Notes: generated by a model not told the origin, from the sequence alone. DNA of 64,000 nucleotides from Candidatus Lutacidiplasmatales archaeon (GCA_044451945.1 JBIOKR010000006.1:8605-72604), one strand, 5' to 3'. Positions 1,460 through 38,945 are shown, counted from the stretch's first letter. A program made the numbers and translations.

Positions 1460-1656
1460 TGCTTCCCTCGGCCTGGCCTCTGCCCCCGCAAGCAGACGTT
1501 GCTTTAAGAAGCCTCTCGACGGGGAGGCAGTCCCGCCACACAAGCCCGAGCGCGGGACTCAATCGCTAGACATGCCTGAGCGAACCGGAAGCTATCACTC
1601 GAAGCACTCTCCCCTCGTGCCTCGTCTCTAAGACGTCGAAGTCAATTCGAGGCCCG

Positions 1657-1863
1657 ATGGCCGACCTCGAAGGCTTCACCGACCTCATCTGGGAACGGAT
1701 CGGACCGGAAGTCCGCGAGATGGTCCGCGAGTCGTGGAAGGTGACTCACGAGCTCGGCCCCGAGCTTCAGCCGAAGGTCTACGCCTGCTTCCTATGGGTG
1801 ACTTGGCTCCGGGGGACGCGTGGAATGCCGCAGGGGCGGCCGGACTTCTGGGACCATGTATGA
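1657..1863 (+). CDS. small hypothetical protein (68 aa)
   Basis: Only plausible ORF in the 372-nt gap between two minus-strand genes. The first about 40 residues look helical and protein-like (MADLEGFTDLIWERIGPEVREMVRESWKV). No homology recognised. Confidence 0.25.
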   Translation: MADLEGFTDLIWERIGPEVREMVRESWKVTHELGPELQPKVYACFLWVTWLRGTRGMPQGRPDFWDHV

Positions 1864-1915
1864 GCTGGGTTGATCGTTCCAGGCGGGCAAGGAACGGTCC
1901 AACAATCAACCCGGC

Positions 1916-3028: not shown

Positions 3029-3200
3029 AGCCGGCTGACGCAGCTTCCTCTATACGCCTTGTTGCGTGGATTGGGGACATGCTCGCCTCCCTTCGATGCG
3101 CCGGAGGGGCGAGATCGGCCGTTTCCGGACAGATTCCCTGACGGAAGATGGGCCGGGCTAGTGCAACTTTCGGCGAATTGGCTATACCCCGCCTCGCGAG

Positions 3201-3273
3201 TGGGCCGGGACGGATTCGAACCGCCGATCTCCGCGTTGTAAGCGCGGCGTCCTAACCGCTAGACGACCGGCCC
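3201..3273 (-). tRNA. tRNA-Val (anticodon TAC)
   Basis: Reverse complement reads GGGCCGGTCGTCTAGCGGTTAGGACGCCGCGCTTACAACGCGGAGATCGGCGGTTCGAATCCGTCCCGGCCCA. It has a 7-bp acceptor stem, anticodon stem CCGCG/CGCGG with loop CTTACAA, T-loop TTCGAAT and discriminator A. Confidence 0.9.
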
Positions 3274-5148
3274 ATTGGTGGGGTTCCTTGCTGAATCGGT
3301 GGACGTCCCAGAGTCCCCCGTCACCGAAGGGTGTGCTCTATGCCGTACCTGTACTGCCAGACCACGTTGCAGCTCGGTCATCAGGGCCCCGGGAAGCCGT
3401 GCTTCGCCCACTCCCAGCAGCACACCCTGCTGCACGAGGAGGACCGCATCCCCCGCTCTGATGGATCGGTCCGCGCGAGCAACGCCGGGAACGAATAGGT
3501 CACCCGTAATGTGGACCTCAGGGGAGACCTCGACCGTGGGACCACCGGCCCCCATCATCCGTTCGCCACCTCTCACTGTGAGTTGGAATAGCCCCCTTTC
3601 TTCTCGCCACGTTGCGAGGTCCGTCCGGCCCGCATCGGTCAAACGCTGGAACCACGGTCGCCCCATAAGCCGGACCGGCGGCCGGAATAGGGCTTCTCCG
3701 GCGGAATCGCCGAACTGGAAGCAGGCAATGGCCTGAAGCTCCTCCCGCACCACCGCGAGCGCTCCGATCCCCCCACCGGCCAGTTCGCTGAGCGCTCCAT
3801 CGACGGCCCGCCGCAACGCGGAAACTGCCGACGCGGAGGTGGTGTGGTCGTCAGGAATGGTCCACTCCGGCTGGAGGGATGCCGGAAGGCGCTCCCGCAG
3901 GAACGCATACTCCGTCGGATCCAGGTGGACGACGATCCGCTGATACTGACCGGTCTTGATCAATCGATCGAGCGCATCCGTGACCGCCCTCCGCTCCGCC
4001 TCCGACCATTCCCCCGTGACCGGAATGTCGTAGTGGCGGGCGGGAAAGGTGTCTTCGAGTTCCCTTGGGACGAGGCCGAGCGGCGAGGTCACCGAAACCG
4101 TGTGGACGAGCGAGAGCGTCGGGAGTCCCTCGAGCGCCCTCGCGAAGCGCCGGTGGCTTCTCGAGGAGCGGTACGGCTTCGTTCGAGAGCACGGCACGAG
4201 GAGGAGGACCCTCTTGGACGGGGGCGGTCGATAGTGGGTGAGAAACCGCTCGCGGAAGCGTCGGACCTCGGGCCGTCGAAACGAGTCGACGATGACGTAG
4301 GTGCTCGAACCGGATCCGACGACCGGCACTCGCTCCTCTAGGAGCGCATAGAGGTCCCGGTCGGCATACCGGAGCAACTCTCCGAGCAGGGGCTCCGAAG
4401 GCAGTCGGGATTCGACTAATTGGCGCAGTCGTCCGATTCGAGAGACCGCCCGTGCCCGCCGTATCTCTTCTTCGAGGGCAAAGACGGCGTGTTCCGAAAG
4501 GGAGACCGGACCGTTGGTGGCACATGCTGGGCATCGACAGGTCCGCTCTTCCGCTTCCGGAGCCGAGTCGAGCACCCCCAGCTGAGGGTCCAGGTACTCT
4601 CCGGCCAGAGCCCGGAATCGCGCCTCGGTCGTGTCCATGAGGTCGACTCCGAGGTACGAGAGCATGGGGACCCGGTGAGGAAGCGCCACGCGGGGGGTCC
4701 ATAGCACCGGCCCGGCGCCAATCTGGCTGCGCAATCCTTGGATCGCTTGGACGAACGGCTCTCCGGAGGCCAGCAGGGCCCGGGCGTTTCCCAGTACGAG
4801 AAGCTCAGGGCGAGAAGCCCGGATGGTCTCGATCTGCCCCGAATCGAGCGGCCAGTGAACGACCCAGCAGTTCGGCGCTGCCTCATAGGCCGCCCCGGCG
4901 GCTCCGGAGACCTCGGGAGAGGGGACGCGGAACCGAATCGGGAAGTTCTCCCCGTTGGCCAAGAGCCGAACTGTTCGGAAGCCCCAGTCCTCCTCGCCTC
5001 CTCCCGCGAGGGCGAGTCGACCCGCCGCGATGGGGGGTGAGCCTTCGACTTGATCGAACGCTAGCTCTGGGACCCTCAGCGGGATCGGGCCTACGCGGGC
5101 CTCCCCCAGAAGGAGCAGCCCTTCGAGGCGTTCAACGTGCCGGGGCAT
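3259..5148 (-). CDS. arcS: archaeosine synthase ArcS (TgtA2-type, tRNA-guanine transglycosylase-like)
   Basis: 629 aa. TGT-like N-terminal region, Zn motif CRCPAC, the ArcS signature PC-x3-KPY-x2-S-x2-H (LLVPCSRTKPYRSSRSH) and a C-terminal PUA-like domain. The last 15 nt overlap tRNA-Val. Confidence 0.85.
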   Translation of the reverse strand: MPRHVERLEGLLLLGEARVGPIPLRVPELAFDQVEGSPPIAAGRLALAGGGEEDWGFRTVRLLANGENFPIRFRVPSPEVSGAAGAAYEAAPNCWVVHWPLDSGQIETIRASRPELLVLGNARALLASGEPFVQAIQGLRSQIGAGPVLWTPRVALPHRVPMLSYLGVDLMDTTEARFRALAGEYLDPQLGVLDSAPEAEERTCRCPACATNGPVSLSEHAVFALEEEIRRARAVSRIGRLRQLVESRLPSEPLLGELLRYADRDLYALLEERVPVVGSGSSTYVIVDSFRRPEVRRFRERFLTHYRPPPSKRVLLLVPCSRTKPYRSSRSHRRFARALEGLPTLSLVHTVSVTSPLGLVPRELEDTFPARHYDIPVTGEWSEAERRAVTDALDRLIKTGQYQRIVVHLDPTEYAFLRERLPASLQPEWTIPDDHTTSASAVSALRRAVDGALSELAGGGIGALAVVREELQAIACFQFGDSAGEALFRPPVRLMGRPWFQRLTDAGRTDLATWREERGLFQLTVRGGERMMGAGGPTVEVSPEVHITGDLFVPGVARADRSIRAGDAVLLVQQGVLLGVGEARLPGALMTELQRGLAVQVRHRAHPSVTGDSGTSTDSARNPTNGPVV

Positions 5149-5269
5149 ACATGGGTCTCCGGCGCAGCCAGCCGACCGCGGGGAAACGCCTTTCCCCCGG
5201 AGCCAGCCAGCGAAGTAGAGGTCGTATCGTGTTGGAGGATCTCAACCGAGGTGAGCCACCGGTCGCCTT

Positions 5270-6136
5270 CTAGAAAAGGACCCCGAGGGCGCACGCGAGG
5301 AGGAACACGCCTGCCATGGCGAAGTGACGGCGGAACGGGCGCTCGGCGCGTGTAGGGGAGCGAAGGAAGTCGAGATCGGTCCAGACGAGGAGAACCCCGA
5401 GGGCCACCAACCCAAGGTAGAACCACCCATGGAGGCGAGCGAGCCAGCCGAACAGGGCCAGTAGGCTGACGGCGATCGCATGGAATACGGTGGTCAAGCG
5501 AGCGCTTGGATCGACCCCCAGACGGAGCGGAAGGGAGTGGAGGCCGAGCGAGCGGTCGGAGTCGATGTCCCCCAGGCTGTGGACCGTCTCGAACGCCGTC
5601 CCCCAGAACAAGAGCCCGAGCGCCGCGACCAGGGCGGCGACCGGGAGGTTTCCGGTCACGGCGATGAAGACCGCTGCCGGGGTGATCGACTCGACCACGC
5701 CGAGAAACACGGTCGTCCACGCGCTCAGGCGTTTCGTGTAGCTGTAGCCCATGATGGCAGCGAGCGCTACCGGCGCAAGGAGCAGGGCGAGAGGGTTCAG
5801 TAGGTGGGCGGCGACGACGAGGACGGCGGCGTTGACCGCCGCAAACCCCAACGCAAACCCCGGCGACCTCTTCCCGGTAACGAGGGCCCGGTGTTGGGTC
5901 CTGGGATTCCGGGCGTCGAGCTCGCGGTCCGCGTAGCGATTGAAGCTATGGCCGGCGTTCCTCGCGGCCACGAACGCGATGACGACCAGGGCCAAGGTCC
6001 GGGCCGTAGGGAGCCCGTGGGAAGCGACCAGTAGGAAGCCCAGCGCGAAGGGAAGGTTGAGCGCAAGATTCTGGATCTCTAGGAACTTTCCGAGCTCCCG
6101 AATGCTACCGGTTTCGTTGGGGGAGTCGGCTCTCAC
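5270..6136 (-). CDS. ubiA: UbiA-superfamily aromatic prenyltransferase
   Basis: Polytopic membrane protein with Asp-rich motifs NRYADRELDARNPRT and GDIDSDRSLG. GTG at 6136 overlaps the ubiD stop (GTGA). The longer tracked ORF (to 6238) would overlap ubiD by 106 nt and adds a non-membrane G/P/R-rich head. Confidence 0.85.
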   Translation of the reverse strand: MRADSPNETGSIRELGKFLEIQNLALNLPFALGFLLVASHGLPTARTLALVVIAFVAARNAGHSFNRYADRELDARNPRTQHRALVTGKRSPGFALGFAAVNAAVLVVAAHLLNPLALLLAPVALAAIMGYSYTKRLSAWTTVFLGVVESITPAAVFIAVTGNLPVAALVAALGLLFWGTAFETVHSLGDIDSDRSLGLHSLPLRLGVDPSARLTTVFHAIAVSLLALFGWLARLHGWFYLGLVALGVLLVWTDLDFLRSPTRAERPFRRHFAMAGVFLLACALGVLF

Positions 6137-7614
6137 GAGCCTTTGCGACCCCCCAGCCGGCGGAGCAGCGTGTCCCCTTGTACCAGGGCCTCCATGCGCG
6201 CCGCGACCGACGGGTCCATGCGGATCTCCTCCGGCCACGGGCGGGGGAATCCGTCCTCCGAGCGCTTGCGGGTCGCGTCGATCCCCATCTTCGCGCCGAG
6301 GAGCGGAACCGGGTTCGAGATGGAGAGCTGGTCCACCGGGCCCTGGACGACCTCGATGTCGCGCTCGGGGTCCGCCTGCAGGCCGACCCGGTAGAGCACC
6401 TCCCTAAGGTCGTGCACGTCGACGTCGTGATCGACCACGACGACGTAGCGGGTGAACATCATCTGGCCAAGCCCCCAGAGGGCGTGCATCACCTTCCGGG
6501 GGTGGTCGGGGTAGGACTTGCCGATGGAGAGGATCGCGACGTTGATGAAGAGACCCTCCAAGGGGAGGTTCATGTCGACGATCTCGGGAAGGACGAGGCG
6601 GACCACCGGCAGGAAGACCCGCTCGACGGCCTTCCCGAGAATGGCGTCCTCGGTCGGGGGCTTCCCGGTGACCGTCGAGAGGTAGACCGGCTTCTCGCGG
6701 TGGGTGATCCGCGTGACGTGGAACACCGGGAACGGCTCGGGCGCCGAGTAGTAGCCGGTATGGTCGCCGAACGGTCCCTCGACCTTGCGCTCGGTCGGGC
6801 CGACGTACCCCTCGAGGACGATCTCGGCCTGCGCCGGGACCTCGAGGTCGACGCCGACCGCCTTCGTGAGCTCGAGCGATTCCCCCCGGAGGAATCCGGC
6901 GAAGACGAGGTTCGATATCCCCTCGGGAACCGGGGCGAGCCCGGCGAACACCGTCGCCGGGTCGCAGCCGATCACCGCGGCCACTTCCATGCGCTCGCCG
7001 CGGGCGCTCCACTTGCGGTAGTTGTTGGCGCCGACCCGGTGAACTTGGAAGTGCATCCCGAGGGTGTCGGGCCCGTACTGCTGGAGACGGTAGATCCCCG
7101 TGTGCTGCTCTCCGCTCTCGGGATCCTTCGTGATGACGACAGGAAAAGTGATGGTGCGCCCCGCGTCGCCCGGCCAGCACTTCAGGATCGGGATGGTCGA
7201 GAGGTCGACCTTCTCCTCCACGACCTCCTGGCACGGACCTTTGCTCACACGCTTTGGGCCCAACGAGCGCAGCGTCTCCAAGGTCGCGAGGGTCCCGCTC
7301 AGGTCCCTGATCGCTCCGAGCACGCCGGCCGGTGGCTTGAGCCGGACGAGCCGGGAGATCTTCTCTGCCGGCTCCTCGATCGACTCGGAGCCGAGAGCAA
7401 GCGCGATCCGTCGCGTCGAGCCAAGGACGTTCGTGGCGACGGGCATGCTCGCGCCCTTCACGTTCTCGAAGAGCAGCGCCGGCCCGTCCGTCCGGACGGA
7501 GCGCTGGGTCAGCTCCGTGATCTCAAGGTCCTGGGAGACGGCGGCCCGAACCCGAAGGAGGTCGCCCCTCGACTCCAATGCGGCCAGGAACTCGCCGAGA
7601 GACCGGTAGGCCAT
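6133..7614 (-). CDS. ubiD: UbiD-family (prenyl-FMN-dependent) decarboxylase
   Basis: 493 aa, typical UbiD length and layout, with the EGPFGDHTGYY motif. ATG at 7614. Translationally coupled to the downstream prenyltransferase. Confidence 0.9.
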   Translation of the reverse strand: MAYRSLGEFLAALESRGDLLRVRAAVSQDLEITELTQRSVRTDGPALLFENVKGASMPVATNVLGSTRRIALALGSESIEEPAEKISRLVRLKPPAGVLGAIRDLSGTLATLETLRSLGPKRVSKGPCQEVVEEKVDLSTIPILKCWPGDAGRTITFPVVITKDPESGEQHTGIYRLQQYGPDTLGMHFQVHRVGANNYRKWSARGERMEVAAVIGCDPATVFAGLAPVPEGISNLVFAGFLRGESLELTKAVGVDLEVPAQAEIVLEGYVGPTERKVEGPFGDHTGYYSAPEPFPVFHVTRITHREKPVYLSTVTGKPPTEDAILGKAVERVFLPVVRLVLPEIVDMNLPLEGLFINVAILSIGKSYPDHPRKVMHALWGLGQMMFTRYVVVVDHDVDVHDLREVLYRVGLQADPERDIEVVQGPVDQLSISNPVPLLGAKMGIDATRKRSEDGFPRPWPEEIRMDPSVAARMEALVQGDTLLRRLGGRKGS

Positions 7615-7637
7615 GCCGGGCGGCGGAGCCGAGCTCG

Positions 7638-7645
7638 ATATTTAA
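7638..7645 (-). promoter_or_regulatory. TATA-box-like element (TTAAATAT on minus strand) for ubiD
   Basis: Isolated AT-rich octamer in GC-rich DNA, centred about 27 nt upstream of the ubiD ATG (7614). This spacing fits a leaderless archaeal promoter. Confidence 0.35.
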
Positions 7646-7681
7646 TCGCAGGCGCAGAGCCAAGGTTCAATACGAAACCTC

Positions 7682-8428
7682 GTGGTCCCGCTCGGGAGCG
7701 CCATGCAGACGGTCACCCTCGAGTTCCGCACCGAGGACCTCACGCTCCTCGGGGTCATTCCTCCGAACTTCTTCCAGAAGTACGAGGAGGTCGAGCTCCT
7801 CGAGACGCTCCGCCTCGAGCGCGGCTTTCGCCTGCAGCTACTGCGTCTGCGCCGCCGCACTCCGCTTCGGTCCGAGGGGGACCTCGAGCGCGAATCCCGA
7901 CGGATCCGTCGCCACTACGGCCTCGAGAGCTTCGAGGTGATTGAGCGGCGTCCGAGAAGCCGGGAGTACATTCTTCTCGTCCGGCAGCGCAACCCGGAGT
8001 GGCTCAAGCGGCTCCTCACGCTCTCCGGGGGAGAGATCACTCCGACGGCGCCGTTCCGCATCGCTGAGGAGCGGGTGGTGGCGACATTCCACGGGGAGGA
8101 GAGGGCGCTGAAGCGGGTCTTGGGTCGCCTCGAGCGGGAAGGGCTCTCCTTCCGTGTGCTGCGCGCCTCGACCCACCCGTACCTCGGCGACGCGGGGGCC
8201 GCCGCGCTCACGGGAAAGCAGCGGGCCGCCGTCGCCCGCGCCTGGGCGCTCGGCTTCTACGCCGTTCCCCGGAGGGTGACACTGAGCCGTCTCGCCAAGA
8301 GCACCGGCCAGAGCCCCCCGGCCCTCGGCAAGATGCTCCGACGGGCGGAGGGCCATCTGATCGCCCGATTCCTGAGCGCCACCGAGCCGGACGAGGGTGC
8401 CCCGGAGCCGGAAACGAAACCCGAGTAG
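7682..8428 (+). CDS. HTH_10 (bacterio-opsin activator-type) transcriptional regulator
   Basis: C-terminal LTGKQRAAVARAWALGFYAVPRRVTLSRLAKSTGQSPPALGKMLRRAEGHLIARF matches the Bat/HTH_10 DNA-binding domain. Start is GTG 7682 or ATG 7703 (MQTVTLEF). Confidence 0.75.
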   Translation: MVPLGSAMQTVTLEFRTEDLTLLGVIPPNFFQKYEEVELLETLRLERGFRLQLLRLRRRTPLRSEGDLERESRRIRRHYGLESFEVIERRPRSREYILLVRQRNPEWLKRLLTLSGGEITPTAPFRIAEERVVATFHGEERALKRVLGRLEREGLSFRVLRASTHPYLGDAGAAALTGKQRAAVARAWALGFYAVPRRVTLSRLAKSTGQSPPALGKMLRRAEGHLIARFLSATEPDEGAPEPETKPE

Positions 8429-8489
8429 GGCGGGGCGGCCGCGCCCCCGGCTCGAAAGCTAGAAACGGGCCGGCATCTCGGGAGACACC

Positions 8490-8933
8490 ATGCCCACGTC
8501 GCGTCGGGTAGTGACCGTGGAGCGGGTCGCCGACGCCCCCGAGGTCCCTTTTCCCACCCGGGCCACCGACGGTTCGGCGTGCTTCGATCTTTGCTCCGCT
8601 GAGTCGGTGCGGCTGCGCCGGGGGAAGATCACCCTGGTGCGCACGGGCCTTCGGATGCGCTCGCCCCCGGGGACGTTCATCGAAGTGCGACCGCGCAGCG
8701 GCTTAGGCTCGAAGGGCGTCATCATGCCGAATGCGCCCGGCACGATCGACCGCGACTACGCCGGGGAGGTCAAGGTGCCGCTCACCTTCCTCCTGTCCGG
8801 CGGTTACCGGATCGAGATCGGGGACCGTATCGGGCAGGTCCGGGTGGTCCGAGAGAGTCCCGCGGCGTTCCGGAAGGGCCGGGTCACCGTCTCGACCGAC
8901 CGGGACGGCGGCTTCGGGAGCACCGGCCGCTGA
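8490..8933 (+). CDS. dut: dUTP diphosphatase (trimeric dUTPase)
   Basis: 147 aa with dUTPase motifs: ATDGSACFDL, RPRSGLGSKG, GTIDRDYAGEV and C-terminal GGFGSTG. Confidence 0.85.
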   Translation: MPTSRRVVTVERVADAPEVPFPTRATDGSACFDLCSAESVRLRRGKITLVRTGLRMRSPPGTFIEVRPRSGLGSKGVIMPNAPGTIDRDYAGEVKVPLTFLLSGGYRIEIGDRIGQVRVVRESPAAFRKGRVTVSTDRDGGFGSTGR

Positions 8934-8937
8934 ACGG

Positions 8938-10575
8938 CTAGCTCGGCGCGTTGTATTCGAAGAGCGAGCGCTGCACCGTCTTGGAAGGGGGCGGGGGAGG
9001 CAAGGTCCCGCGCGCCGCCTCCTCCTCGACCCGCTCGAGCATCTGGTGCATCCGGACCTCTTTTCCCGCCGCCGAGCGGGCCAGGCCCACGTCCCGCGTT
9101 CCCCCGGCGACCAGGACGATCGCGCGACCCAGGCGAGCGCGGCCCGTCCGGCCACGTCGCTGGATGGTCCGGATAAGGTCCGGCACCGGCTCGTAGAATA
9201 GCACAAGGTTCGTGGAGGGGATGTCGAGCCCCTCCTCCGCGACCGAGGTGGCGATGAGGCAGTTGACGCTGCCAGCTCGGAATTGATCCAGGATCGCCAG
9301 CTGCTCCTTCTGGGTCAGCCCCTCGTCCGTTCCGTGCGAGGCCTGCCCGACGAACCGCTCGGCCCGGACCGCCGGGTCGGCGGCCCGGCGCAACTCGGCG
9401 ACCAGGACGTCCGCGGTCTGGCGATACTGGGTGAAGATGATCACGCGCGAATCGGGAGATGAGCGAAGCTCCTTTGTGACGATCTCGACCGCCTTCGCCA
9501 CCTTCGGGTGCTCGATCTGGATCGACGAGAGCGCGACGATCGCCTGAGCCACGTCCGGGTCACCGAGGAAGGCGCGCTGGGCGGGTTTCATCCGGCCCCC
9601 GGGTGATTCCGACTGCTTCGCGAGGAAGCCCCGGAGCGCGTCGACCCCCTGGGTCTCGATGAGCTCGAGGGCGTGGAGTCCTTTCATCGCCACGGACTGA
9701 GCGGTCACCGCCGACCAGAGGGCCGCCCCGCCGTTCTGCCCCTCCCGACGAGCGTTCGATATCTCGAGGCGCAACTGGGCACCCAGCCCCAAGAGCTCCC
9801 TTCGGCCCACCGGCTGTTCGGGGAGCCGATGCATCTTGCGCAGGAGATCCTCCTGACGTGCCACGGTGGTCCTCAGCAGGATCCCGAGGTGCTTCACCTC
9901 CGCCGGTATCGGTACCTCCACGGTCTCGACGCCAACGCCGTGGACGTACGGCATGACATCGGTATCCTGGGCGGTGCGGTATTCGAACCGCTCGATCCCG
10001 AGGTGGTACCATACCTCGCGGATCCTTTCGAGACGCGGGCCGGGGGAGGCCGTCATGGCGAGCACCCGGGCGTGGGCGCCGCGCCGGTTCGCTTCCCCGA
10101 TGGTAACGTACGGATAGTCGCCGGCCGCGCGGTGGGCTTCGTCGAAGATGATGAGCGAGTAGTCCTCGAGACGGAACTCGGCCCGGGCCAGGTCGTTTCC
10201 GACGACTTGGGGAGTCGCCACGACGATCTGAGGAGGAGCGAGGAGCGCGGCGCGACGGTCCGGGGGGATCGTGCCGGTGAGGACCACCGGTGGCGGGGTG
10301 AACAGCGACGCGGCCACGGTTCGGGCGTGTTGGAGAACGAGCGGTCGGGTCGGGGCGAGGAAGAGGATCGAGCGCGTCGGTGCCCTCAGAAGCCACTCGG
10401 CGATGACCCGGAGCGCGATCGCCGTCTTTCCGAGCCCGGTCGGGAGTACGACCAATGTGTTGTGGTCGATCGCCGTTGCCGCAATGCGCTCCTGATAGAG
10501 CCGGTCGTCCAGAACTCCGGGGCGTATCCGCGGGTGCTCGACGACCGCCAAGGGGTACCCGCCCTCCCGGTCCAC
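8938..10575 (-). CDS. hef: Hef/FANCM-type SF2 helicase (helicase part only)
   Basis: 545 aa. YQERIA...LVVLPTGLGKT (motif I), FDEAHRAAGDY (motif II), MTASPG (motif III), QRRGRTGR (motif VI). No ERCC4/XPF nuclease domain follows. GTG start. Confidence 0.8.
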   Translation of the reverse strand: MDREGGYPLAVVEHPRIRPGVLDDRLYQERIAATAIDHNTLVVLPTGLGKTAIALRVIAEWLLRAPTRSILFLAPTRPLVLQHARTVAASLFTPPPVVLTGTIPPDRRAALLAPPQIVVATPQVVGNDLARAEFRLEDYSLIIFDEAHRAAGDYPYVTIGEANRRGAHARVLAMTASPGPRLERIREVWYHLGIERFEYRTAQDTDVMPYVHGVGVETVEVPIPAEVKHLGILLRTTVARQEDLLRKMHRLPEQPVGRRELLGLGAQLRLEISNARREGQNGGAALWSAVTAQSVAMKGLHALELIETQGVDALRGFLAKQSESPGGRMKPAQRAFLGDPDVAQAIVALSSIQIEHPKVAKAVEIVTKELRSSPDSRVIIFTQYRQTADVLVAELRRAADPAVRAERFVGQASHGTDEGLTQKEQLAILDQFRAGSVNCLIATSVAEEGLDIPSTNLVLFYEPVPDLIRTIQRRGRTGRARLGRAIVLVAGGTRDVGLARSAAGKEVRMHQMLERVEEEAARGTLPPPPPSKTVQRSLFEYNAPS

Positions 10576-10612
10576 CGTCGCCGCCTTATTATCGAGTTAC
10601 CCTGCTCGGCCG

Positions 10613-11746
10613 TTGCTCCCGCTCCTTCTCCTCGGGCTGGCCCTGCTCGCGACGGTCGTCGTGCTCCTCTACCAGGGGTTCGCGCTGCTGCTTGCTTCCG
10701 AGATGCCGCGGCTCGACCCGAGCGGGTCGTCGAAACCCGGCGATCGACCGCTCGTGAGCGTGGTGATCGCCGCCCGCGACGAGGAGGCGGATCTTCCGGG
10801 CTGCCTAGATGACCTTCTGCGCCAATCCTACCCCAATCTCGAGATCCTGGTGGTCGACGGGGGGTCGACCGACCGAACGCGAGAGGTCGCACGGGAGAAG
10901 GCGCCGCGCGTGCGGTTGATCGAGGAGCCGGCGCTCCCGGAAGGTTGGGTCGGGAAGAACTGGGCGTGCGATGTCGGCTACCGAGCGAGCCGCGGGGAAT
11001 ACCTACTCTTCCTCGACGCCGATGTCCGCCTGAATCCCTGCACGATTGCCGCGACGGTCGAGTGGACGGAGTCGACCGGCGCACAGCTCTCCACTCTCGC
11101 TCCAAGGATCGAGCTGGGCAGTTTCTGGGAGAAGCTCGTACTCCCCTTCTACGTCCAGATGGTCCTGACGTACTTCCGGACGCCGCACGTCAACCGCGCG
11201 AACTCCCGGGCCGCGATGGCCAACGGCCAGTTCTTCCTTGTTCGGAGGCCGGCGTACGAGCGGGTCGGTGGCCACGCCGGCTTCCGGGGGTATGTGCTCG
11301 AGGACGTACGGATCGCCGAGGAGTTCCGTGGCGCCGACTTGCCAATGCGCGTCGCCTGGGCGCCGGCGCTCATGACCACTCGAATGTACCGGGACCGCCG
11401 CGAGCTGTTCGAGGGCCTTCTCAAGAACGTCCACGGCACCCGGTTCTCCGCACTCCGGCAGGTCGGTTTCCTCGCGGGGCTCATCGGGTTCTTCTGGCTG
11501 CCCCTCGCGCTCCTTCCCCTGGGCCTCTTCGTCGCCTCCCCTTCGTTGATAGCCCTCGGAGCGATCCTGTATCTGGCGTTGTTCGCCAAGCACGCCGGGT
11601 TCTCTCGCGCGGTCGGAGGCTCGGCGGTTTACGGTCTCTTGTTCCCAGCTGCGGTCGGATTCTACGTCGTACTGGTCGCGACCTCGATCGTGCGCGGGCT
11701 CAGGGGCCGCCCCGTCGCGTGGAAGGGTCGGTCATACCCGATCTGA
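10613..11746 (+). CDS. family 2 glycosyltransferase with membrane anchor and C-terminal TM bundle
   Basis: N-terminal TM helix, GT-A core VSVVIAARDEE...LVVDGGSTDRT...FLDADV (DxD), then four or so C-terminal TM helices. TTG start. Confidence 0.8.
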   Translation: MLPLLLLGLALLATVVVLLYQGFALLLASEMPRLDPSGSSKPGDRPLVSVVIAARDEEADLPGCLDDLLRQSYPNLEILVVDGGSTDRTREVAREKAPRVRLIEEPALPEGWVGKNWACDVGYRASRGEYLLFLDADVRLNPCTIAATVEWTESTGAQLSTLAPRIELGSFWEKLVLPFYVQMVLTYFRTPHVNRANSRAAMANGQFFLVRRPAYERVGGHAGFRGYVLEDVRIAEEFRGADLPMRVAWAPALMTTRMYRDRRELFEGLLKNVHGTRFSALRQVGFLAGLIGFFWLPLALLPLGLFVASPSLIALGAILYLALFAKHAGFSRAVGGSAVYGLLFPAAVGFYVVLVATSIVRGLRGRPVAWKGRSYPI

Positions 11747-11872
11747 GCCAGAGTCGCTCGGCGAACGGACAGGAAGGGCACCAACGTCCCCCGTGAACGC
11801 CGAGGGGATGCCCAACGCCCCGCTCTGGGAACGGTTATCCCCGTCCCCCATTCTCGCCGGGAGAGTTCGACC

Positions 11873-13351
11873 ATGGCCGGGCAGGTAGACGCGAAGTTCG
11901 AGCTGTTCATCGGCGGCAAGGAGGTTCCGGGGACCCGGGGAGACCGTCGAACTCTCCTCAATCCGGCGGCGAACACGCCGCTCACCAGCACTGCGGTCGC
12001 CAGCGTCGACGACGCGCGCCACGCGATGGAGACGGCCGAACGGGCGTTCCGGGAGTCGAACTGGACGGCAGATGACGGAGCGCGCCGCGCGAAGGCGCTC
12101 CACAAGCTCTCCGGACTTCTCGAGACCCAGCTCGAGGAGTTCGCCCGTCTCGAGACGCTCAACCAGGGCAAGACGATCAGGGAGGCCCGGGGCGACATCG
12201 GGTTCGTCGTCCGGACCCTCGAGTACGCCTCCGGTCTCGCCGACAAGATCCAGGGGGAGACAATCCCGGTTCCCGGGCCCCGGTTCGACTACACCCTGAG
12301 GGAGCCCCTCGGGGTCACGGTCCATATCTCGCCGTGGAACTACCCGCTCGTCCTCGCGATGCGCTCGGTCGCTCCGGCGCTCGCCGCCGGCAACTCGGTC
12401 GTCCTGAAGCCGGCGAGCCTTACCCCGCTCACCGCACTCAAGCTGGCCCGCTTGGGAAAGGATGCCGGGATCCCGGACGGGATCTTCAACGTCGTCACCG
12501 GGAACGGCTCCGAGGTCGGCGAGGCGCTCGTCACGGACCCGCGTTGCCAGTCTGTCACGTTCACGGGCAGCGGCGAGGTCGGGGCCCGGATCGCCGAGCT
12601 CGCGGCGAAGCGGATCATCCCGTACACGCTGGAACTCGGGGGAAAGAGCCCGGTGATCGTCTTTCCGGACGCCGACCTCGACCGCGCCGCCCGCGGGGTA
12701 GCCTTCGGGATCTTCGGCAACGCCGGGCAGATGTGCTGGGCCGGTTCCCGCCTGCTGCTCGCCAACTCGATCGCCGACGACTTCTTGGGGAAGTTGCGAA
12801 CGATCGCCGAGGCGTACCGCCTCGGGCCCGGTATCGAGGAGACCGCCGAGATGGGCCCCCTGGTATCGAAGGAGCAGAGCGAGAGGGTCCTCGGTTTCGT
12901 CGACGAGGCCCGGGGCGACGGAGCGAAGGTCGTCACGGGCGGCGGAAAGGCCGAGGAGGAGCCGCTCCGCGCCGGGAACTTCGTGCGGCCGACGGTGCTG
13001 GCCGAACTTCCCGAGACCGCGCGAGTCCTCCGGGACGAAGTGTTCGGGCCGGTGCTCGTGGTCCAACGGTTCAACACGCCGGACGAGGCCGTGGCCTCGG
13101 CGAACCGGACTCACTTCGGGCTGTTCTCCGCCCTGTGGACGAAGGATCTCGTCACGGCGCATTCGGTCGCCCGACGATTGGAGTCCGGACTCGTCGCCAT
13201 CAACGACCCGCCGAACTCGTTCCCCCAGACCCCCTTCGGAGGGTTCAAGGGGAGCGGGGTCGGTTTCGAGCAGGGGATCGACGCGGTCCAGTCGTTCACG
13301 CGTCGAAAGAACGTGATGATCAACCTCTCCGTCAGCAAGCCCAAGAAGTAG
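11873..13351 (+). CDS. NAD(P)+-dependent aldehyde dehydrogenase
   Basis: 492 aa. ALDH motifs ISPWNYPL, FTGSGEVG, LELGGKSP (catalytic Glu) and FGNAGQMCWAGSR (catalytic Cys). Confidence 0.9.
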   Translation: MAGQVDAKFELFIGGKEVPGTRGDRRTLLNPAANTPLTSTAVASVDDARHAMETAERAFRESNWTADDGARRAKALHKLSGLLETQLEEFARLETLNQGKTIREARGDIGFVVRTLEYASGLADKIQGETIPVPGPRFDYTLREPLGVTVHISPWNYPLVLAMRSVAPALAAGNSVVLKPASLTPLTALKLARLGKDAGIPDGIFNVVTGNGSEVGEALVTDPRCQSVTFTGSGEVGARIAELAAKRIIPYTLELGGKSPVIVFPDADLDRAARGVAFGIFGNAGQMCWAGSRLLLANSIADDFLGKLRTIAEAYRLGPGIEETAEMGPLVSKEQSERVLGFVDEARGDGAKVVTGGGKAEEEPLRAGNFVRPTVLAELPETARVLRDEVFGPVLVVQRFNTPDEAVASANRTHFGLFSALWTKDLVTAHSVARRLESGLVAINDPPNSFPQTPFGGFKGSGVGFEQGIDAVQSFTRRKNVMINLSVSKPKK

Positions 13352-33713: not shown

Positions 33714-34493
33714 TCAGCGGGCGACCTCGGCGAAGAAGCTCGTGACGATCCCGAACGACTGGCGAGATGCGACCGCTTGGTCGTACCCCGCTTCGCGCAA
33801 CAGCTCGAGCATCCGGGGGGTCGCGGGAAGGTGGCGCAGCGACTCCGGCAGGTACCGGTAGGGTCCGGCGCTCTTGACCGCCGCCCCGAGCCACGGGACG
33901 ACCCGGTCGAAGTAGGCGTGGAACATCGAGCCGATGAGCGCTGAGGGGGGCTCGGTGATCTCGAGGGTGAGGAGAGTGCCCCCCGGGGTGAGCACCCGGC
34001 GGAGCTCCCGGAACGCCAGAGGGAGGCTCGGGAGGTTGCGGGCGACGAACGCCGACATCACCACATCGAAGGAGGCGGAGCGGAACGGCAGGTGGAGCGC
34101 GCTCGCGCCGGCGAAGTCGACCTGTCCAGGGCGATGCCCGTCGCCGGTGAGCTCTGTCGCTCTCTGGAGCATCGCGGGCGTGAAGTCCGCCCCGACGACC
34201 CTCGCACTAGGGAACCGGCGCGCCGCCTGTCGTGTCAGGTCGCCGGTCCCGCAGCCGATGTCGAGGATGCGGCGCGTGGGGCGGTCCGACCGGCGCCGCT
34301 CGAGATCCCAGAGCGCCCGGGGACGCCAGAGATAATCGTTGCCGAGCGACGCGACATGGTCGAACCAGTCGTAGCGGACGGCGATGTGGGTGAACATCGC
34401 CCGGACGTCGCGCTCGAAGGTTGGACGGTTGCGGTCGGGGTACGGCGAGCCGTCGCTTGCCGTGCGGTCCGCCCGCGGGATCGAACCGGCCAC
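33714..34493 (-). CDS. ubiE: demethylmenaquinone/ubiquinone C-methyltransferase (UbiE/MenG family)
   Basis: YDWFDHVASLGNDYLWR plus SAM motif ILDIGCGTGDL and FDVVMSAFVARNL, as in UbiE/MenG. GTG start. Confidence 0.85.
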   Translation of the reverse strand: MAGSIPRADRTASDGSPYPDRNRPTFERDVRAMFTHIAVRYDWFDHVASLGNDYLWRPRALWDLERRRSDRPTRRILDIGCGTGDLTRQAARRFPSARVVGADFTPAMLQRATELTGDGHRPGQVDFAGASALHLPFRSASFDVVMSAFVARNLPSLPLAFRELRRVLTPGGTLLTLEITEPPSALIGSMFHAYFDRVVPWLGAAVKSAGPYRYLPESLRHLPATPRMLELLREAGYDQAVASRQSFGIVTSFFAEVAR

Positions 34494-34517: not shown

Positions 34518-36962
34518 TTAACGCTGCGCCGTCGGACTGGTGGCGAGGCGCTTCGCCAGCGCCGCCACGTTCTCGGAGAGGTCTCCGCGCAGCCGAAGGA
34601 TCCCGAGGCCCCTCGCTTGGGAGAGGTGTTCTCGGGCCTTGTCGAGCTCCCCCGCCTCCGCGCTGAGCTCCGCCAGGCGGTACTCGACCTCGGCGGTCTC
34701 CGCGGAGAGCGAGAGGACCTGGGCGAGCTTGAGGGAGCGCTGGTAGAGCTGCTCCGCCGCCTCGAAGCGCCGCTCCTCGGCGGCGATCATCGCGTCGATC
34801 ATGAGCAGCTGCTGGAGCGCGAGTTGGTCCCCGAGAGGCTCGAGCATGGCCCGCGCCCTCTCCGCGTGGGTGCGCGCCTCGGCAGGGGCATGCAGCTCGA
34901 CGCGGAACTGCGCCATGTTGAGATGGCAGTAGCCGATCCAGATCCGCGAGCGCGACTTCTCCGCGGCCGCAATGGCGCCTTCCATGTCGACGAGCGCCAG
35001 ATCCATGTGGCCCGCATTGTGGTGGAGGAGGGCCCGGTTCATCAGCACCCTCGATTGGGCGCTGTGGTCCCGGCTCTCGGCGAACAGCGCGATCGCCCGC
35101 TCGTAGAGCGTGAGCGCTTCGGCGATCCGCTCGCCACCGAGCCGGATCTCCGTGTTGGCAAGATCGATGAGCGCGTGGCCCTTCTCGTTCGCCGTGCCGC
35201 TCTTCTCGGCGATGGCGAGCGCCTCGGTCTGGTGGGAGACGGCAAGCGGGAGGTCCCCGAGCCGCCAGTAGGCGACCCCGAGGACTCGGTGGGCGGTCAT
35301 GATCCCGCGCGGGTTCCCCAGCTTCTCGAGGATCCCGTACGCCTCCGTGGCGAGCTCGCGGGCGCTCGAGTACTCGCTCAGGTCGGTGCGAGTCTGGGCG
35401 AGCCCGATGAGCGCGAGGGCCAGCTCCGTCTCCCGCCCCGCCTCGCTGCGGGCGCGGGTCACCGCGTCCAGAAGGACGCCTTCGGAGCGCCGCAGGTCGC
35501 CGAACTCGTCCAGGATCCGGCCGAGCTCGATCATGAGCCGAAGCTCCCCGGCGAGGTCTCTCGGCGTGAGCCGCCGCTGGGAGTCGAGCGCCCGTTCGAG
35601 GTGCAGTACCGCCGTCTCGAAGGCGAGCGCGCGGGCCGCATGCTCCGCGGCCCGGCGATTGTACTCGACCGCCTTCGGGTCGTTCTGCCCGAGGTAGTAC
35701 TGCCGGGCGAGCTCGTAGTCGCGCGTTGCGCTCGAGCCGCCGGGACGCGAGGCGATCGCATCCGCGGCCTTGCGGTGGAGGATCCGCCGGCGCGTCTCCG
35801 TGAGTTGGGAGTAGACGTCCGCCCGTACCGCCTCCCTAACGAACTCGTAGACCTCGCCGCCCTTCTCGCGCAGGAGGCCGCCGTGGACGAGCCTATCGAG
35901 CGACTCGCTCAACCGCTCCTCGTCCTGGCCGCTCGCCAGCGAGAGCATCGGGAACTCGAACTCCTTCCCTAGGATGGCGCCGTAGACGAGGACCCGGCGG
36001 TCGACGTCCGCCAGCCGCTTGACCCGGTCCCTCAGCAGCCCGTCCAGGTCCTGCCCACGGCGCTCCGGGCCGGCAGGGGGCGGAGCGAAGCCGCTGCTTC
36101 CGCGCACGAGGTATTCGACGAACAGGGGGTTGCCGTCCGTCTGGGTGAACCAACGCATGACGGAATCTCGGCCGGGATCCCGGCCGTTCAGGAGCCACTT
36201 CACATACGGCTCGAGCTCGGATTCGCTCATCGCCCGCAGCTTGAGCGGCGCCGAGCGGGGCGAGGAGAGGAGGGTCGCGATGATCCCGGCGGAACGGCTC
36301 GGCATCTCGGAGAGCGGCGGAACGGTCGCGACGATGACGAGCGGCGAGCGCTCGATGCGGGGAAGAAGGCGCAGGAGTAGCTCCAGGGAGGAGTCGTCCG
36401 CGAACTGTAGGTCGTCGATCGCGAGAAGCAGCGGCCGCTCCTTCGACAGCTGGAGAAGGTAGTCGGCGAGCTCCTCGAACAGGTTCGAGCGGTTCGCGTC
36501 GACCCGCTCGACCGGGTTGGCGAGATGTCGGAGGAGCCGGGCCGCCTCCTCCTGATCCGGAGGCTCCTCGGTGAGCCCGGTCGACCGCGCGGCCGGGCCG
36601 GTCGCGTCGGTCTCGAACGGGCCGAGGAACATCGGGAGGACCGGGCTGGCTCGCGACCGAACGGTCGGCGGGTCGTGGCGTTGGCGCGCGGAGCGAAGAA
36701 GGTCCTGGACGAGCGCGAACGGCTCGGGAACATCGGAGGGGAGGGCGCGGCCGACCAGCACCTGATAGTCGAGGCCGCGGGCGCTCGCTTCGGCGGCCCC
36801 GAGCAACGTGCTCTTCCCGATCCCTCCCTCGCCGACCAAGAGGAGGAGCCGGCCGCCACCCTCCCGGGAGCCTTGGAGGAGCCTCAGGAGCTCCTCGACG
36901 ACCTCGTGCCGCCCGAACAGGGGAACGGCCTTCCCCCGCTCTGTCGACGCCGAGACCGCCAC
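34518..36962 (-). CDS. STAND-type P-loop NTPase (AAA_16-like) with winged-helix and long TPR array
   Basis: 814 aa. Walker A LLVGEGGIGKST, Walker B LLLAIDDLQFAD, then wHTH-like LVYGAILGKEFEF...LVHGGLLRE and about 400 aa of TPR-like repeats. No effector or DNA-binding output domain seen. GTG start. Confidence 0.8.
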   Translation of the reverse strand: MAVSASTERGKAVPLFGRHEVVEELLRLLQGSREGGGRLLLLVGEGGIGKSTLLGAAEASARGLDYQVLVGRALPSDVPEPFALVQDLLRSARQRHDPPTVRSRASPVLPMFLGPFETDATGPAARSTGLTEEPPDQEEAARLLRHLANPVERVDANRSNLFEELADYLLQLSKERPLLLAIDDLQFADDSSLELLLRLLPRIERSPLVIVATVPPLSEMPSRSAGIIATLLSSPRSAPLKLRAMSESELEPYVKWLLNGRDPGRDSVMRWFTQTDGNPLFVEYLVRGSSGFAPPPAGPERRGQDLDGLLRDRVKRLADVDRRVLVYGAILGKEFEFPMLSLASGQDEERLSESLDRLVHGGLLREKGGEVYEFVREAVRADVYSQLTETRRRILHRKAADAIASRPGGSSATRDYELARQYYLGQNDPKAVEYNRRAAEHAARALAFETAVLHLERALDSQRRLTPRDLAGELRLMIELGRILDEFGDLRRSEGVLLDAVTRARSEAGRETELALALIGLAQTRTDLSEYSSARELATEAYGILEKLGNPRGIMTAHRVLGVAYWRLGDLPLAVSHQTEALAIAEKSGTANEKGHALIDLANTEIRLGGERIAEALTLYERAIALFAESRDHSAQSRVLMNRALLHHNAGHMDLALVDMEGAIAAAEKSRSRIWIGYCHLNMAQFRVELHAPAEARTHAERARAMLEPLGDQLALQQLLMIDAMIAAEERRFEAAEQLYQRSLKLAQVLSLSAETAEVEYRLAELSAEAGELDKAREHLSQARGLGILRLRGDLSENVAALAKRLATSPTAQR

Positions 36963-36988
36963 GTTACCTCAACCGGCCCGAAAGTAGT

Positions 36989-38575
36989 TCAGCTAGTCCC
37001 TCGGGAGGCGGGCTCACCGGCGACCGAAGGGTCGGTCTTCGACGCCTGGGCGACCTGCCGGGAGAGCTCGGCGAACGGCTTAGCGAGGTTCGGTTTCAAG
37101 GTGGGGAGGTCGAGCTGGGCCGCCGCCTCGAGCTCGCTCCTGGCCTTCGGAAGGTTCCGGGTCTTGAACAGGAGTCGGGCGAGTAGGAAGCGCGATTCGG
37201 CCTCCTCCGGCTTGAGGCCGTACTTGCGCGAGCGTTCGATCGCCCTCCGGTAGGCCGCCTCGCCTTCCTCCCACTGCCCCTTCTTCTCCAGGATCAAACC
37301 CTCGTTCTTCTCGACCTGCTGGAGGCCGAGGGGATCTTCGGCCCGCTCGAGGAGCCGGCCGGCCTGCTGGTTGTCCCGCTCCGCCTCCTCGACCTGGCCG
37401 AGGGCGAGGCGCATCTCGACGCCCGAGAAGAGCGACCAGCCGGCCCAGCGCGGCTCGTGGGCCCGCTCGGCCGCCTCCTGGCAGCGGGCGAGGTTCTCAA
37501 GCCCCTCGGCGGGCCGGGACTCGCCGATGAGCACCCCCAGGTTGTGGTACGCCCGGGCGACCTCCGTCCAATCCCCGACCTCGCGGAGCCTATCGATGGC
37601 GCGCTCGTACCAGCTGATCGCCTCGCCGCCGACCCCGGAGCCGAGCATGGCGAACGCATTGCCGATGTCGATGCACAGCTCGCCCAGGACCCTCAGGTCG
37701 TTCCCCTGCTGGAGGAGGTCGAGCGCCCGCATCCCTTCGTCCAGCGCCTCCCGGTAGGCGCCTTTCGACAGCGCCACCCGGCCTAGGATTCGGTGGATCG
37801 CCGCGACGCCGCCCAGATCGCCGACGCGGGAGAAGAGCTCGTGCGCCTGGCGGGCGAGGCGGACCGCCGTCTCGAGCTCGAGCCGCTCCCTAGCGACCTC
37901 GGCCCTCGCCAGGAGGAGCCTCGCCCTGAGCTTGATGTCCTTCTCGCCGACCCATTCGAGTCCCTCGTGGTAGAGCCGGTCCGCAGCGTGGAGGTCGCCC
38001 GTGGCGAAGTAGAGCGCTCCGAGCTCCTCTGCGAGACCTGCCTCTTCGAGGCTGTGGTCGCCCGGTAGGGCCCTCAGGTCGATCCGCGCCCTCTCGAGGT
38101 GGTGCGCGGCGACCTCGGGCTGGCTCCCCTCCCGGGAGAGGAGCGCGGCCCGACGGTTAAGATGGTAGGACTTCTCGGGAACCTTGCCGAGGAAGTAGTG
38201 TCGGCCCATCTCGGGGATGACGTCGACCGGAGGCGACGGGTACAGCCTTTCCATCGCCTCTGCGATCTTCCGGTGAAGGACGCGTAGCCGACTCGCCGTC
38301 AGCGACTGGTAGACCTTCGCCCGGGCCTCGTCGTGCACGAAGCTGAAACGGTCGCCGCCCGGCCGCTCCCTCAGGACGCCGAGCTGGGTGAGCTTCTCGA
38401 CCTCTTCCGAGAGGTTCTCCTCGTTGCCGCCCAGGGCCGCGACCAGGAGCTTGAAGTCGAACTCGCGCCCGACGGCGCTCCCGTAGGCGAGGATCCTTAG
38501 CTGCTCCGGGGTGATCCCCTTCGGAAGCTGCCCCGCGTCGAGCCCCTCGACACGATCCGCGTCGACGGACTCCAT
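36989..38575 (-). CDS. winged-helix + TPR protein, NTPase-less paralogue of the downstream STAND gene
   Basis: About 528 aa from ATG 38575. ILAYGSAVGREFDFKLLVAALGGNEENLSEEVEKLTQLGVLRERPGGDRFSFVHDEARAKVYQSL...VLHRKIAEAM aligns with residues after the NTPase of the 814-aa protein. No P-loop. Confidence 0.75.
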   Translation of the reverse strand: MESVDADRVEGLDAGQLPKGITPEQLRILAYGSAVGREFDFKLLVAALGGNEENLSEEVEKLTQLGVLRERPGGDRFSFVHDEARAKVYQSLTASRLRVLHRKIAEAMERLYPSPPVDVIPEMGRHYFLGKVPEKSYHLNRRAALLSREGSQPEVAAHHLERARIDLRALPGDHSLEEAGLAEELGALYFATGDLHAADRLYHEGLEWVGEKDIKLRARLLLARAEVARERLELETAVRLARQAHELFSRVGDLGGVAAIHRILGRVALSKGAYREALDEGMRALDLLQQGNDLRVLGELCIDIGNAFAMLGSGVGGEAISWYERAIDRLREVGDWTEVARAYHNLGVLIGESRPAEGLENLARCQEAAERAHEPRWAGWSLFSGVEMRLALGQVEEAERDNQQAGRLLERAEDPLGLQQVEKNEGLILEKKGQWEEGEAAYRRAIERSRKYGLKPEEAESRFLLARLLFKTRNLPKARSELEAAAQLDLPTLKPNLAKPFAELSRQVAQASKTDPSVAGEPASRGTS

Positions 38576-38651
38576 CTGACGGAAATACCGTGGCCGGGGG
38601 CTTAAAGACTCGCGGCGGCCCGCCGGGCGACCCGGACCCGCCTCGCGGGGC

Positions 38652-38687: not shown

Positions 38688-38945
38688 ATGGCGGACGAAG
38701 CCGAGCCCGGAGGGGAGGGTGCCCGCTCCGTCTCGGAGCTACCGCTCCACCGCCAGCTCACCTTCTACGCGTTCGCCGGGCTCCTCGTGCTCGCCCTCGT
38801 CTTCTACCTCTGGTGGGGGTTCTCCTTCGGCGTGTGGGTCGACAACGGCATTTATGCCGTCGTCGTCGTTCTCGCGATGTTCGGCCTCGCCGGGATGTGG
38901 CTCATGATGCCGAACCCGCCCGTCCACGAGACCCTGCCGGGATAA
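38688..38945 (+). CDS. small two-TM membrane protein
   Basis: 85 aa. Two hydrophobic helices (FYAFAGLLVLALVFYLWWGF and IYAVVVVLAMFGLAGMWLMM). A TATA-like box sits at leaderless distance. Confidence 0.5.
   Translation: MADEAEPGGEGARSVSELPLHRQLTFYAFAGLLVLALVFYLWWGFSFGVWVDNGIYAVVVVLAMFGLAGMWLMMPNPPVHETLPG

Follow-up and report, generated by a model that had tools for sequence, protein, structure and literature searches.

An archaeal STAND family with conserved, recombining sensor-only paralogues

We describe here two adjacent genes in a 64,000-nucleotide (nt) stretch of DNA (hereafter, the window) from Candidatus Lutacidiplasmatales archaeon (GCA_044451945.1, JBIOKR010000006.1:8605-72604), an uncultured soil archaeon of the Thermoplasmata. 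One gene encodes a full-length STAND NTPase with an array of tetratricopeptide repeats (TPR), hereafter FL. The other, located upstream on the same strand, encodes a headless, NTPase-less paralogue composed of a winged-helix domain (WHD), an arm and TPRs, hereafter HL. The pair belongs to a STAND family with conserved and recombining sensor-only paralogues. STAND/NLR proteins usually carry sensor, ATP switch and output fused in one chain; the family described here has no output domain, and its sensor-only paralogue, retained throughout the existence of the organism family, can be lost, duplicated, arrayed or recombined onto an NTPase. To judge from its conservation and distribution, HL is a functional, old and family-wide gene, and the arrays and chimeras presented below indicate that its sensor module is plug-compatible with FL-type NTPases. 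The two genes are separated by a spacer of 26 nt and were delimited as open reading frames (ORFs) as follows, NBD and HD standing for the nucleotide-binding and helical domains:

34518..36962, minus strand: FL gene, 814 amino acids (aa), GTG start, NBD-HD-WHD-arm-TPR
36989..38575, minus strand: HL gene, 528 aa from ATG, WHD-arm-TPR, NTPase-less paralogue

Presence of HL and FL was counted in 151 genomes of the same GTDB family, which fall into seven genera, and the class-wide sample comprised 301 genomes from 88 genera. Conservation of FL motifs was scored over 50 orthologues. AlphaFold2 models of HL and FL, both confident, were built on 46 and 50 orthologues, respectively. A maximum-likelihood tree was calculated from the common WHD-arm-TPR region of 68 sequences with homologues from other families as the outgroup, and synteny was compared in three long contigs and 20 further loci. 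The NBD-HD-WHD unit is referred to as NOD.

HL shows no similarity to NTPases in profile searches, Pfam returning TPR families only and no NBD. Its AlphaFold2 model (pLDDT 91.7) consists of the WHD at residues 23-92, followed by the arm and by TPRs to residue 514. Since the domain limits of the HL and FL models can be laid side by side, HL is seen to start exactly at the HD/WHD hinge. BLASTP aligned FL 323-809 with HL 27-511 at 30% identity (E 2e-47, 6 gaps in 489 columns), far beyond chance. An earlier note, made from the sequence of the window alone, had claimed that the upstream gene begins at the winged helix and is devoid of a P-loop, and both points were borne out. It had also claimed that no NTPase remnant is left upstream, which holds because only 112 nt separate HL from a divergent gene starting at 38688 and there is no space for such a remnant. 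The parts of HL are:

38300..38509, minus strand: HL winged-helix domain, aa 23-92; H-E-H-H-E-E in the AlphaFold2 model; mean pairwise identity 0.69
38066..38299, minus strand: HL arm, aa 93-170, holding the junction motif LTASRLRVLHRK; mean pairwise identity 0.68
37031..38065, minus strand: HL TPR sensor array, aa 171-515; helical repeats in the AlphaFold2 model

The WHD and the arm are the best conserved regions of HL, and the distal TPRs are conserved at 0.55. Half of the highly conserved WHD positions (16/32) and 15/34 of those in the arm are identical in FL; the corresponding numbers are 16/55 for the proximal and 7/46 for the distal TPRs, where the common positions are mostly structural G, A or L. 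The HL TPRs keep invariant polar residues unlike the FL consensus (R224, E226, R229, R266, E280, R299, W322 and W336, and further R376, N402, R411, N424, W435, K471 and R473), and the FL TPRs likewise keep invariant polar residues of their own, different from those of HL. This pattern in the sequences fits a common NTPase-docking module (WHD/arm) joined to a diverged sensor. Because the two TPR arrays keep different invariant polar residues, a plain decoy for the same ligand is unlikely.

Orthologues of HL, 503-550 aa long and 56-66% identical, fall into at least 120 clusters, all of them from metagenome-assembled genomes of “Thermoplasmata archaeon” obtained from soil. FL orthologues, also in at least 120 clusters, measure 800-820 aa and are 48-59% identical, i.e. 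HL is better conserved than FL. It should be added that both cluster counts are lower bounds.

In FL, Pfam identified AAA_16 at aa 14-211 (E 1.2e-19) and TPR_12 (E 8.8e-20). The AlphaFold2 model (pLDDT 87.3) places the NBD at residues 14-245, the HD at 246-291, a disordered hinge at 292-304 and the WHD at 306-387, followed by the arm and by TPRs to residue 808. FL has the P-loop NBD with Walker A and Walker B and the NBD-HD-WHD-arm-repeat order of STAND NTPases; the P-loop GEGGIGKST lies at aa 44-52 and LLLAIDDLQFAD at aa 178-189. Its features are:

36810..36833, minus strand: Walker A GEGGIGKS, aa 44-51; G44, G47, G49, K50 and S/T51 invariant or nearly so in 50 orthologues, consensus GxGGVGK[ST]
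36411..36431, minus strand: Walker B LLLAIDD, aa 178-184; D183 and D184 invariant in 50/50 orthologues
36612..36638, minus strand: motif L-P-[LM]-F-[LA]-A-P-[FY]-[ED], aa 109-117, in an insert of the FL NBD (orthologue alignment)
35802..36047, minus strand: FL winged-helix domain, aa 306-387, from the AlphaFold2 model; mean pairwise identity 0.65
34533..35558, minus strand: FL TPR sensor array, aa 469-810, from the TPR_12 match and the helical repeats of the AlphaFold2 model

Mean pairwise identity within FL is lowest in the NBD (0.43-0.47) and highest in the HD, WHD and arm (0.63-0.66). Two canonical STAND residues are missing from the FL orthologues: V, S, T or L stands at position 214, which we take to be that of the sensor-I Arg after strand beta-4, and S, R or T at position 376, presumably that of the WHD His, both placements coming from knowledge of AAA_16/MalT motifs and not from structural superposition. 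The paralogues C15 and C9 of the same genome are non-canonical at these positions as well, and a distant AAA_16-TPR paralogue of 1017 aa, C11 (G000:C11:4599-7652, plus strand), has both residues (yRPE and FDH).

An effector domain at either end of the chain is usual in STAND proteins, though not universal. No effector or output domain was found in FL or HL with Pfam, NCBIfam, PADLOC, a profile search of PDB or Foldseek run on the AlphaFold2 models, and NOD-arm-TPR covers every structured residue of both proteins. Pfam matched no helix-turn-helix (HTH) family in either of them, and PADLOC returned a generic TPR model only (E about 1e-5), with no match to Avs or other defence systems. The view of FL as an effector-less STAND-TPR protein of 814 aa, put forward earlier, agrees with its coordinates, the AAA_16 match and the structural model; the profile and Foldseek searches gave NOD and TPR only, and no conventional output domain came to light. 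Two candidates for an output were rejected. In FL as in HL, the WHD is acidic (net charge about -5; about -4.7 in HL), its recognition helix included, and it was discarded as a DNA-binding output; an amyloid-type motif common to the HL C-terminus and the FL N-terminus was discarded too, both ends being variable and disordered and having no motif in common.

The phylogenetic tree resolved three family-wide clades, namely HL (100/99), the FL of the locus, or clade B (96/91), and unlinked FL, or clade C (100/99), which takes in the own-genome paralogues C15 and C9. Clades B and C are sisters (100/95). HL branches outside both and is consequently an ancient paralogue and no recent truncation of its neighbour, so that the notion of HL as a headless copy of the adjacent gene had to be abandoned. 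Gene trees follow genera, and the HL and B subtrees are congruent within the home genus; from these trees we conclude that the pair is inherited together and vertically.

HL was present in 118/151 genomes of the family and in 6/7 genera, and an FL-type NOD in 129/151. HL was not found in the 264 other genomes of the class, i.e. within the class-wide sample the HL type is confined to the family. Of the sampled home-genus genomes, 98 contain both genes and 21 lack both; FL without HL occurs in one, and HL without FL in none. The 21 double-negative genomes are also devoid of unlinked FL paralogues, HL and the FL copies of at least two loci being absent together. In the ProRS tree, these genomes form four supported groups on an unresolved backbone, which corresponds to one to four losses. 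A single HL-positive genome in the whole sample had no detected FL, and this genome is 64% complete. HL is followed immediately, and in the same orientation, by the best NOD match in all 20 cross-checked home-genus genomes (20/20); in the examined loci, both genes had the same orientation and were 3-26 nt apart.

The pair occupies a fixed place. Across the seven genera, the locus reads GDH, phosphoribosyltransferase, DUF373, ProRS, a small divergent gene, a variable cassette, UbiE and aminotransferase. The borders of the cassette in the window and its contents elsewhere are:

33714..34493, minus strand: UbiE/MenG-type methyltransferase gene, 24 nt downstream of FL, followed by the aminotransferase gene; conserved right-hand border
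38688..38945, plus strand: divergent gene for a small membrane protein of 85 aa; conserved left-hand border, kept at empty sites too
Cassette HL+FL: this window, most of the home genus, g16, g18
Cassette HL only: g15, g17, g20
Cassette FL only: g19
Cassette HL+HL+FL: G120
Cassette HL+FL+FL: G051
Cassette HL-UbiE-HL: G049
Cassette empty: G022, G002, with about 150 nt only between the small gene and UbiE

In the loci with HL only, HL lies directly upstream of UbiE, and each of these genomes has one unlinked FL. In g19, HL was found in 0/9 genomes and FL in 9/9, with 4-9 full-length copies per genome. The earlier idea of a two-gene sensor/decoy is thus right in that the genes are co-inherited, as seen from the congruent subtrees, and wrong in that they form no obligate pair, three genera having HL only and g19 FL only at the locus. 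Nor does the locus lie in a defence island: no defence genes neighbour it, it is a fixed housekeeping site between ProRS and UbiE/aminotransferase, and its genes show the vertical inheritance of core or shell genes. This may serve as a warning that STAND-TPR genes are not all antiviral.

Further relatives were retrieved by a search of 1.84 billion representative proteins. It yielded P0252, a full-length protein of 797 aa that resembles HL more closely than any FL does (E 8e-87). Its relatives comprise about 12 clusters of “headed” proteins and about 45 headless clusters of about 510 aa, the latter matching the C-terminal region of P0252 at 54-64% identity; both kinds come from a sister lineage with 58% GC. 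In locus L141 of this material (JGI 3300033405, Ga0326727_10000748), at least eight headless WHD-TPR genes of 508-513 aa stand in tandem at 1538-12776. Pairwise identity among these array copies is 57-72%; their WHD (0.74) and arm (0.78) are conserved and their distal TPRs diversified, down to 0.44. Furthermore, locus L139 (114-9590), from the same lineage, reads HL-HL-HL-STAND(888 aa)-small gene-HL-UbiE-aminotransferase and represents the same conserved locus.

The headed proteins nest within the clade of headless arrays (100) in the WHD-TPR tree, and their NODs cluster with FL-C NODs (98). P0252 and P0391 are chimeras, in which an FL-C-type NBD-HD-WHD is joined to an HL-type arm-TPR. Sliding-window comparison of P0391 with the FL-C-type protein P0403 and with array HL a7 gave the following identities:

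P0391 residues 1 to about 385: 68-93% to P0403
P0391 residues 287 to about 385: 68-84% to P0403, 26-47% to array HL a7
P0391 beyond about residue 385: 17-39% to P0403, 60-78% to array HL a7 (42% in the last window)

A sharp crossover is seen near residue 385, at the conserved WHD/arm junction (LTExRRRxLHRK). As about 12 orthologue clusters of such proteins exist, the chimeras have been kept by selection, and their combination of an FL NOD with an HL sensor means that the sensor module of HL and a NOD of the FL type are compatible. It should also be added that the P0252 and P0391 genes (L135 and L137, 10001-12394) stand singly amid genes for PKD-domain surface proteins.

To explain these data, we propose that the locus may belong to a family of STAND proteins without effectors, modular in build and specific to one family of soil Thermoplasmata. 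FL would be a nucleotide-dependent, oligomerising switch with a TPR sensor, in which Walker A and B are intact and the sensor-I Arg and WHD His positions non-canonical, and its output could only be its own oligomeric WHD/TPR scaffold. HL would have lost NBD and HD at the hinge, kept the WHD and arm, the part by which STAND proteins dock on the NTPase, and evolved a TPR sensor of its own. It would then be a NOD-less sensor or adaptor acting in trans through FL-type NTPase modules, either modulating the switch or adding a second input. We put this forward tentatively, at a little under even chances, as far as sequences and models allow. The high conservation of the WHD and arm in a protein that has no NBD of its own supports it, and so does the retention of an unlinked FL in each of the genera where HL stands alone at the locus. 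Further support comes from the age and family-wide distribution of HL, from the congruent subtrees and close spacing of the two genes with the sequence signals before each, and from the chimeras and arrays of the sister lineage.

Several points weigh against this proposal. The conserved WHD/arm residues may serve intramolecular packing alone. The chimeras prove compatibility in cis, not action in trans, and the phyletic correlation of HL and FL is built on few independent events. Moreover, adjacency is not obligatory for either gene, given FL without HL in g19 and HL without adjacent FL in three genera. If HL does act in trans, the family would provide a simple prokaryotic instance of a truncated NLR regulating a full-length one, something worked out so far only in plants, and the WHD/arm junction would be a natural module boundary of STAND switches. 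A wider version of the proposal would be an NLR-like network, in which many NOD-less sensors (one per genome here, at least eight in an array of the sister lineage), each with its own ligand, dock in trans on a few FL hubs and drive or block their oligomerisation, with recombination at the WHD/arm junction. This would be the prokaryotic counterpart of plant sensor/helper pairs and of regulation by truncated NLRs; we regard it as speculative and rather improbable.

The alternative that survives best is that HL is an independent TPR scaffold or adaptor with no link to STAND signalling, and that its adjacency to FL is left over from a tandem duplication. It would account for HL standing alone at the locus in g15, g17 and g20 and for FL standing alone in g19, as well as for the private invariant residues of the HL sensor and for the conservation of HL above that of FL. 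However, HL practically never occurs in a genome without an FL-type gene, and HL is missing together with FL copies at two or more separate loci in the 21 double-negative genomes of the home genus. An independent scaffold would also leave unexplained why conservation in HL peaks in the NTPase-docking WHD/arm and why natural re-fusions of the HL arm-TPR to an FL NOD have been retained. We therefore consider this explanation unlikely, though it deserves attention.

An immune function was weighed as well, in which NOD-less sensors and FL hubs of an NLR-like network would detect proteins of invaders, and the killing or abortive output would be located elsewhere or would be the oligomer itself. FL has the STAND-TPR architecture in common with Avs proteins, Foldseek also matched Avs3 (8dgc), and the variation in copy number and in presence or absence at the locus, with 4-9 FL copies per g19 genome, would suit such a system, as would domain swapping and arrays of at least eight genes with diversified distal TPRs. 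The sensor of Avs7 is, moreover, reused without an NTPase in Dsr1 (PMC12803255). On the other side, no member examined has an effector domain, PADLOC reports a generic TPR only, and there are no neighbouring defence genes. The orthologues are 50-66% identical, with no hypervariable orthologous sensors, and the fixed syntenic housekeeping locus with its congruent trees is unlike the horizontally transferred Avs (PMC12803255). An immune network is accordingly doubtful in our eyes, with roughly one chance in its favour for every four against.

The plant protein NRG1C suggests another possibility. It consists of WHD and leucine-rich repeats (LRR) only, occurs beside the full-length NRG1A/B and sequesters their activator EDS1-SAG101 (PMC12177489). 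HL could by analogy be a feedback inhibitor that sequesters the activating ligand of FL with higher affinity, and the same architecture of WHD and repeats beside full-length paralogues, the known action of NRG1C and the probable co-transcription of HL and FL speak for it. Its weak side is the sensor, as conserved polar TPR residues of HL and FL largely differ (7/46 distal and 16/55 proximal positions common); besides, the two proteins are 30% identical, split before the two FL clades parted, and HL is retained where the FL of the locus is lost. We judge an inhibitor of this type to be improbable. Finally, that HL is a decaying remnant, a pseudogene or a recent truncation of a duplicated FL, for which nothing but the missing N-terminal domains speaks, is refuted for practical purposes by an intact frame of 503-550 aa in well over 100 species, by identity above that of FL orthologues, by a confident model truncated exactly at a domain boundary and by a family-wide clade; the occurrence of HL in 118/151 genomes and at least 120 clusters of constant length likewise speaks against a one-off event, which the earlier note had named as a possible outcome along with decay.

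Comparison with known systems sets the family apart in several respects. Foldseek of FL against PDB placed PH0952 first (6mfv_A, E 5.5e-14, 791 columns), followed by TPR proteins and Avs3, and HL matched TPR proteins and the WHD-arm-TPR part of 6mfv only. PH0952 of Pyrococcus horikoshii (PDB 6MFV, PMC6468293) is the closest solved relative, archaeal and with the same NBD-HD-WHD-arm-TPR order as FL, at an identity of about 14% only. Unlike FL it has an ArsR-type effector, the canonical sensor-I Arg and WHD His are absent from the FL clade, and no NOD-less partner has been described for PH0952.

The AAA_16 NTPase and the MalT-like TPR region are also common to FL and to MalT/LAL, AfsR and the TOMM kinase/cyclase fusions. 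In NCBIfam, TIGR03903 (its positions 473-1232) aligned with FL 5-772 (E 1.8e-30) and the AfsR model matched the TPR part of FL only, in both cases far under the cut-offs. These proteins have LuxR, SARP, kinase or cyclase outputs, whereas FL and HL have none; transcription factors of the MalT/PH0952 type carry a DNA-binding LuxR- or ArsR-type HTH effector, which neither FL nor HL contains. Avs proteins combine, like FL, a STAND NTPase with a TPR sensor, and sensor-only relatives exist among them (Avs7/Dsr1, PMC12803255), the reused sensor being accompanied by effectors (PMC12803255). N-terminal effectors (nuclease, protease, SIR2 and others), horizontal mobility and defence context, which characterise Avs, are not found here, and the NBD of FL starts already at residue 14.

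NRG1C is the closest working analogue of HL, as it retains WHD and a repeat sensor, stands beside full-length genes and is kept by selection. It differs in being a plant protein with LRR instead of TPR, in its independent origin and in acting by sequestration of the same ligand. HL, in turn, has conserved sensor residues that mostly differ from those of FL, is much more ancient than the adjacent gene and also occurs in its absence. Our literature search found no paper describing the archaeal HL/FL pair or a like prokaryotic system. The earlier statement that the pair corresponds to no described system can therefore be kept for prokaryotes, and it needs qualification for plants, where NRG1C is a close analogue (PMC12177489). 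New here are the polymorphism of the cassette, the three-clade history, the headless arrays, the chimeras and the parallel with NRG1C.

Signals read from the sequence suggest how the pair may be expressed in the window:

38602..38606, minus strand: TATA-like TTTAA box, 27-31 nt upstream of the HL ATG (putative, read from the sequence)
36966..36970, minus strand: purine-rich GAGGT just 5' of the FL GTG, inside the 26-nt spacer (putative, read from the sequence)

The position of the TTTAA box favours the ATG at 38575 as the start of HL and a leaderless-type transcript. No AT-rich box is present in the HL-FL spacer, and the GAGGT before FL suggests its translation from the HL transcript; from the box, the GAGGT and the spacer, HL and FL are probably co-transcribed. 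A scan of the locus for bacterial-type promoters and terminators was uninformative.

The insert of the FL NBD between Walker A and Walker B (aa 99-125) is disordered, with pLDDT < 50. The motif at aa 109-117 within it is conserved (L 46/50, P 46/50, A 47/50, P 44/50) and is flanked by unconserved, hypervariable sequence rich in Pro, Ala and Glu. LP[LM]F[LA]AP[FY][ED] also occurs in C15 and C9. This island resembles a short linear motif and may, as an idea only, be a peptide ligand of the TPR groove. Frames of 1100-1276 aa in relatives, considered as a Rosetta-stone fusion of FL and UbiE, turned out to be FL frames prolonged at the 5' end in GC-rich DNA, and the fusion was rejected.

At one empty site, locus L073 (G002:C2), about 700 nt (2245-2944) lie between the small gene and ProRS versus 29 nt in the window. 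In the ProRS tree, three g19 genomes fall inside the home genus g1 (99/93), which may be single-gene noise or may mean that genus limits are off for this marker. Full-length STAND-TPR paralogues were also seen as tandem pairs, both at other places within the family and in a second family of the class:

G003:C3:920548-924546
G032:C21:9100-12961
G058:C4:166201-169527
G004:C56:22904-26825

Near the unlinked paralogues C15 and C9, no effector candidates were seen in ORF calls and N-terminal sequences, no domain search being included. Two short ORFs preceding C11 have N-termini that resemble, by eye only, PIN-domain (VapC-type) toxins. Lastly, an ORF of 802 aa at G000:C4:56454-58862 (plus strand) has a winged-HTH-like N-terminus (GISQRELAKALGYHPSSMCRPLQDLVESGHL), a P-loop (GPPGMGKT) and long helical repeats, and it may encode a PH0952-like STAND transcription factor with an effector.

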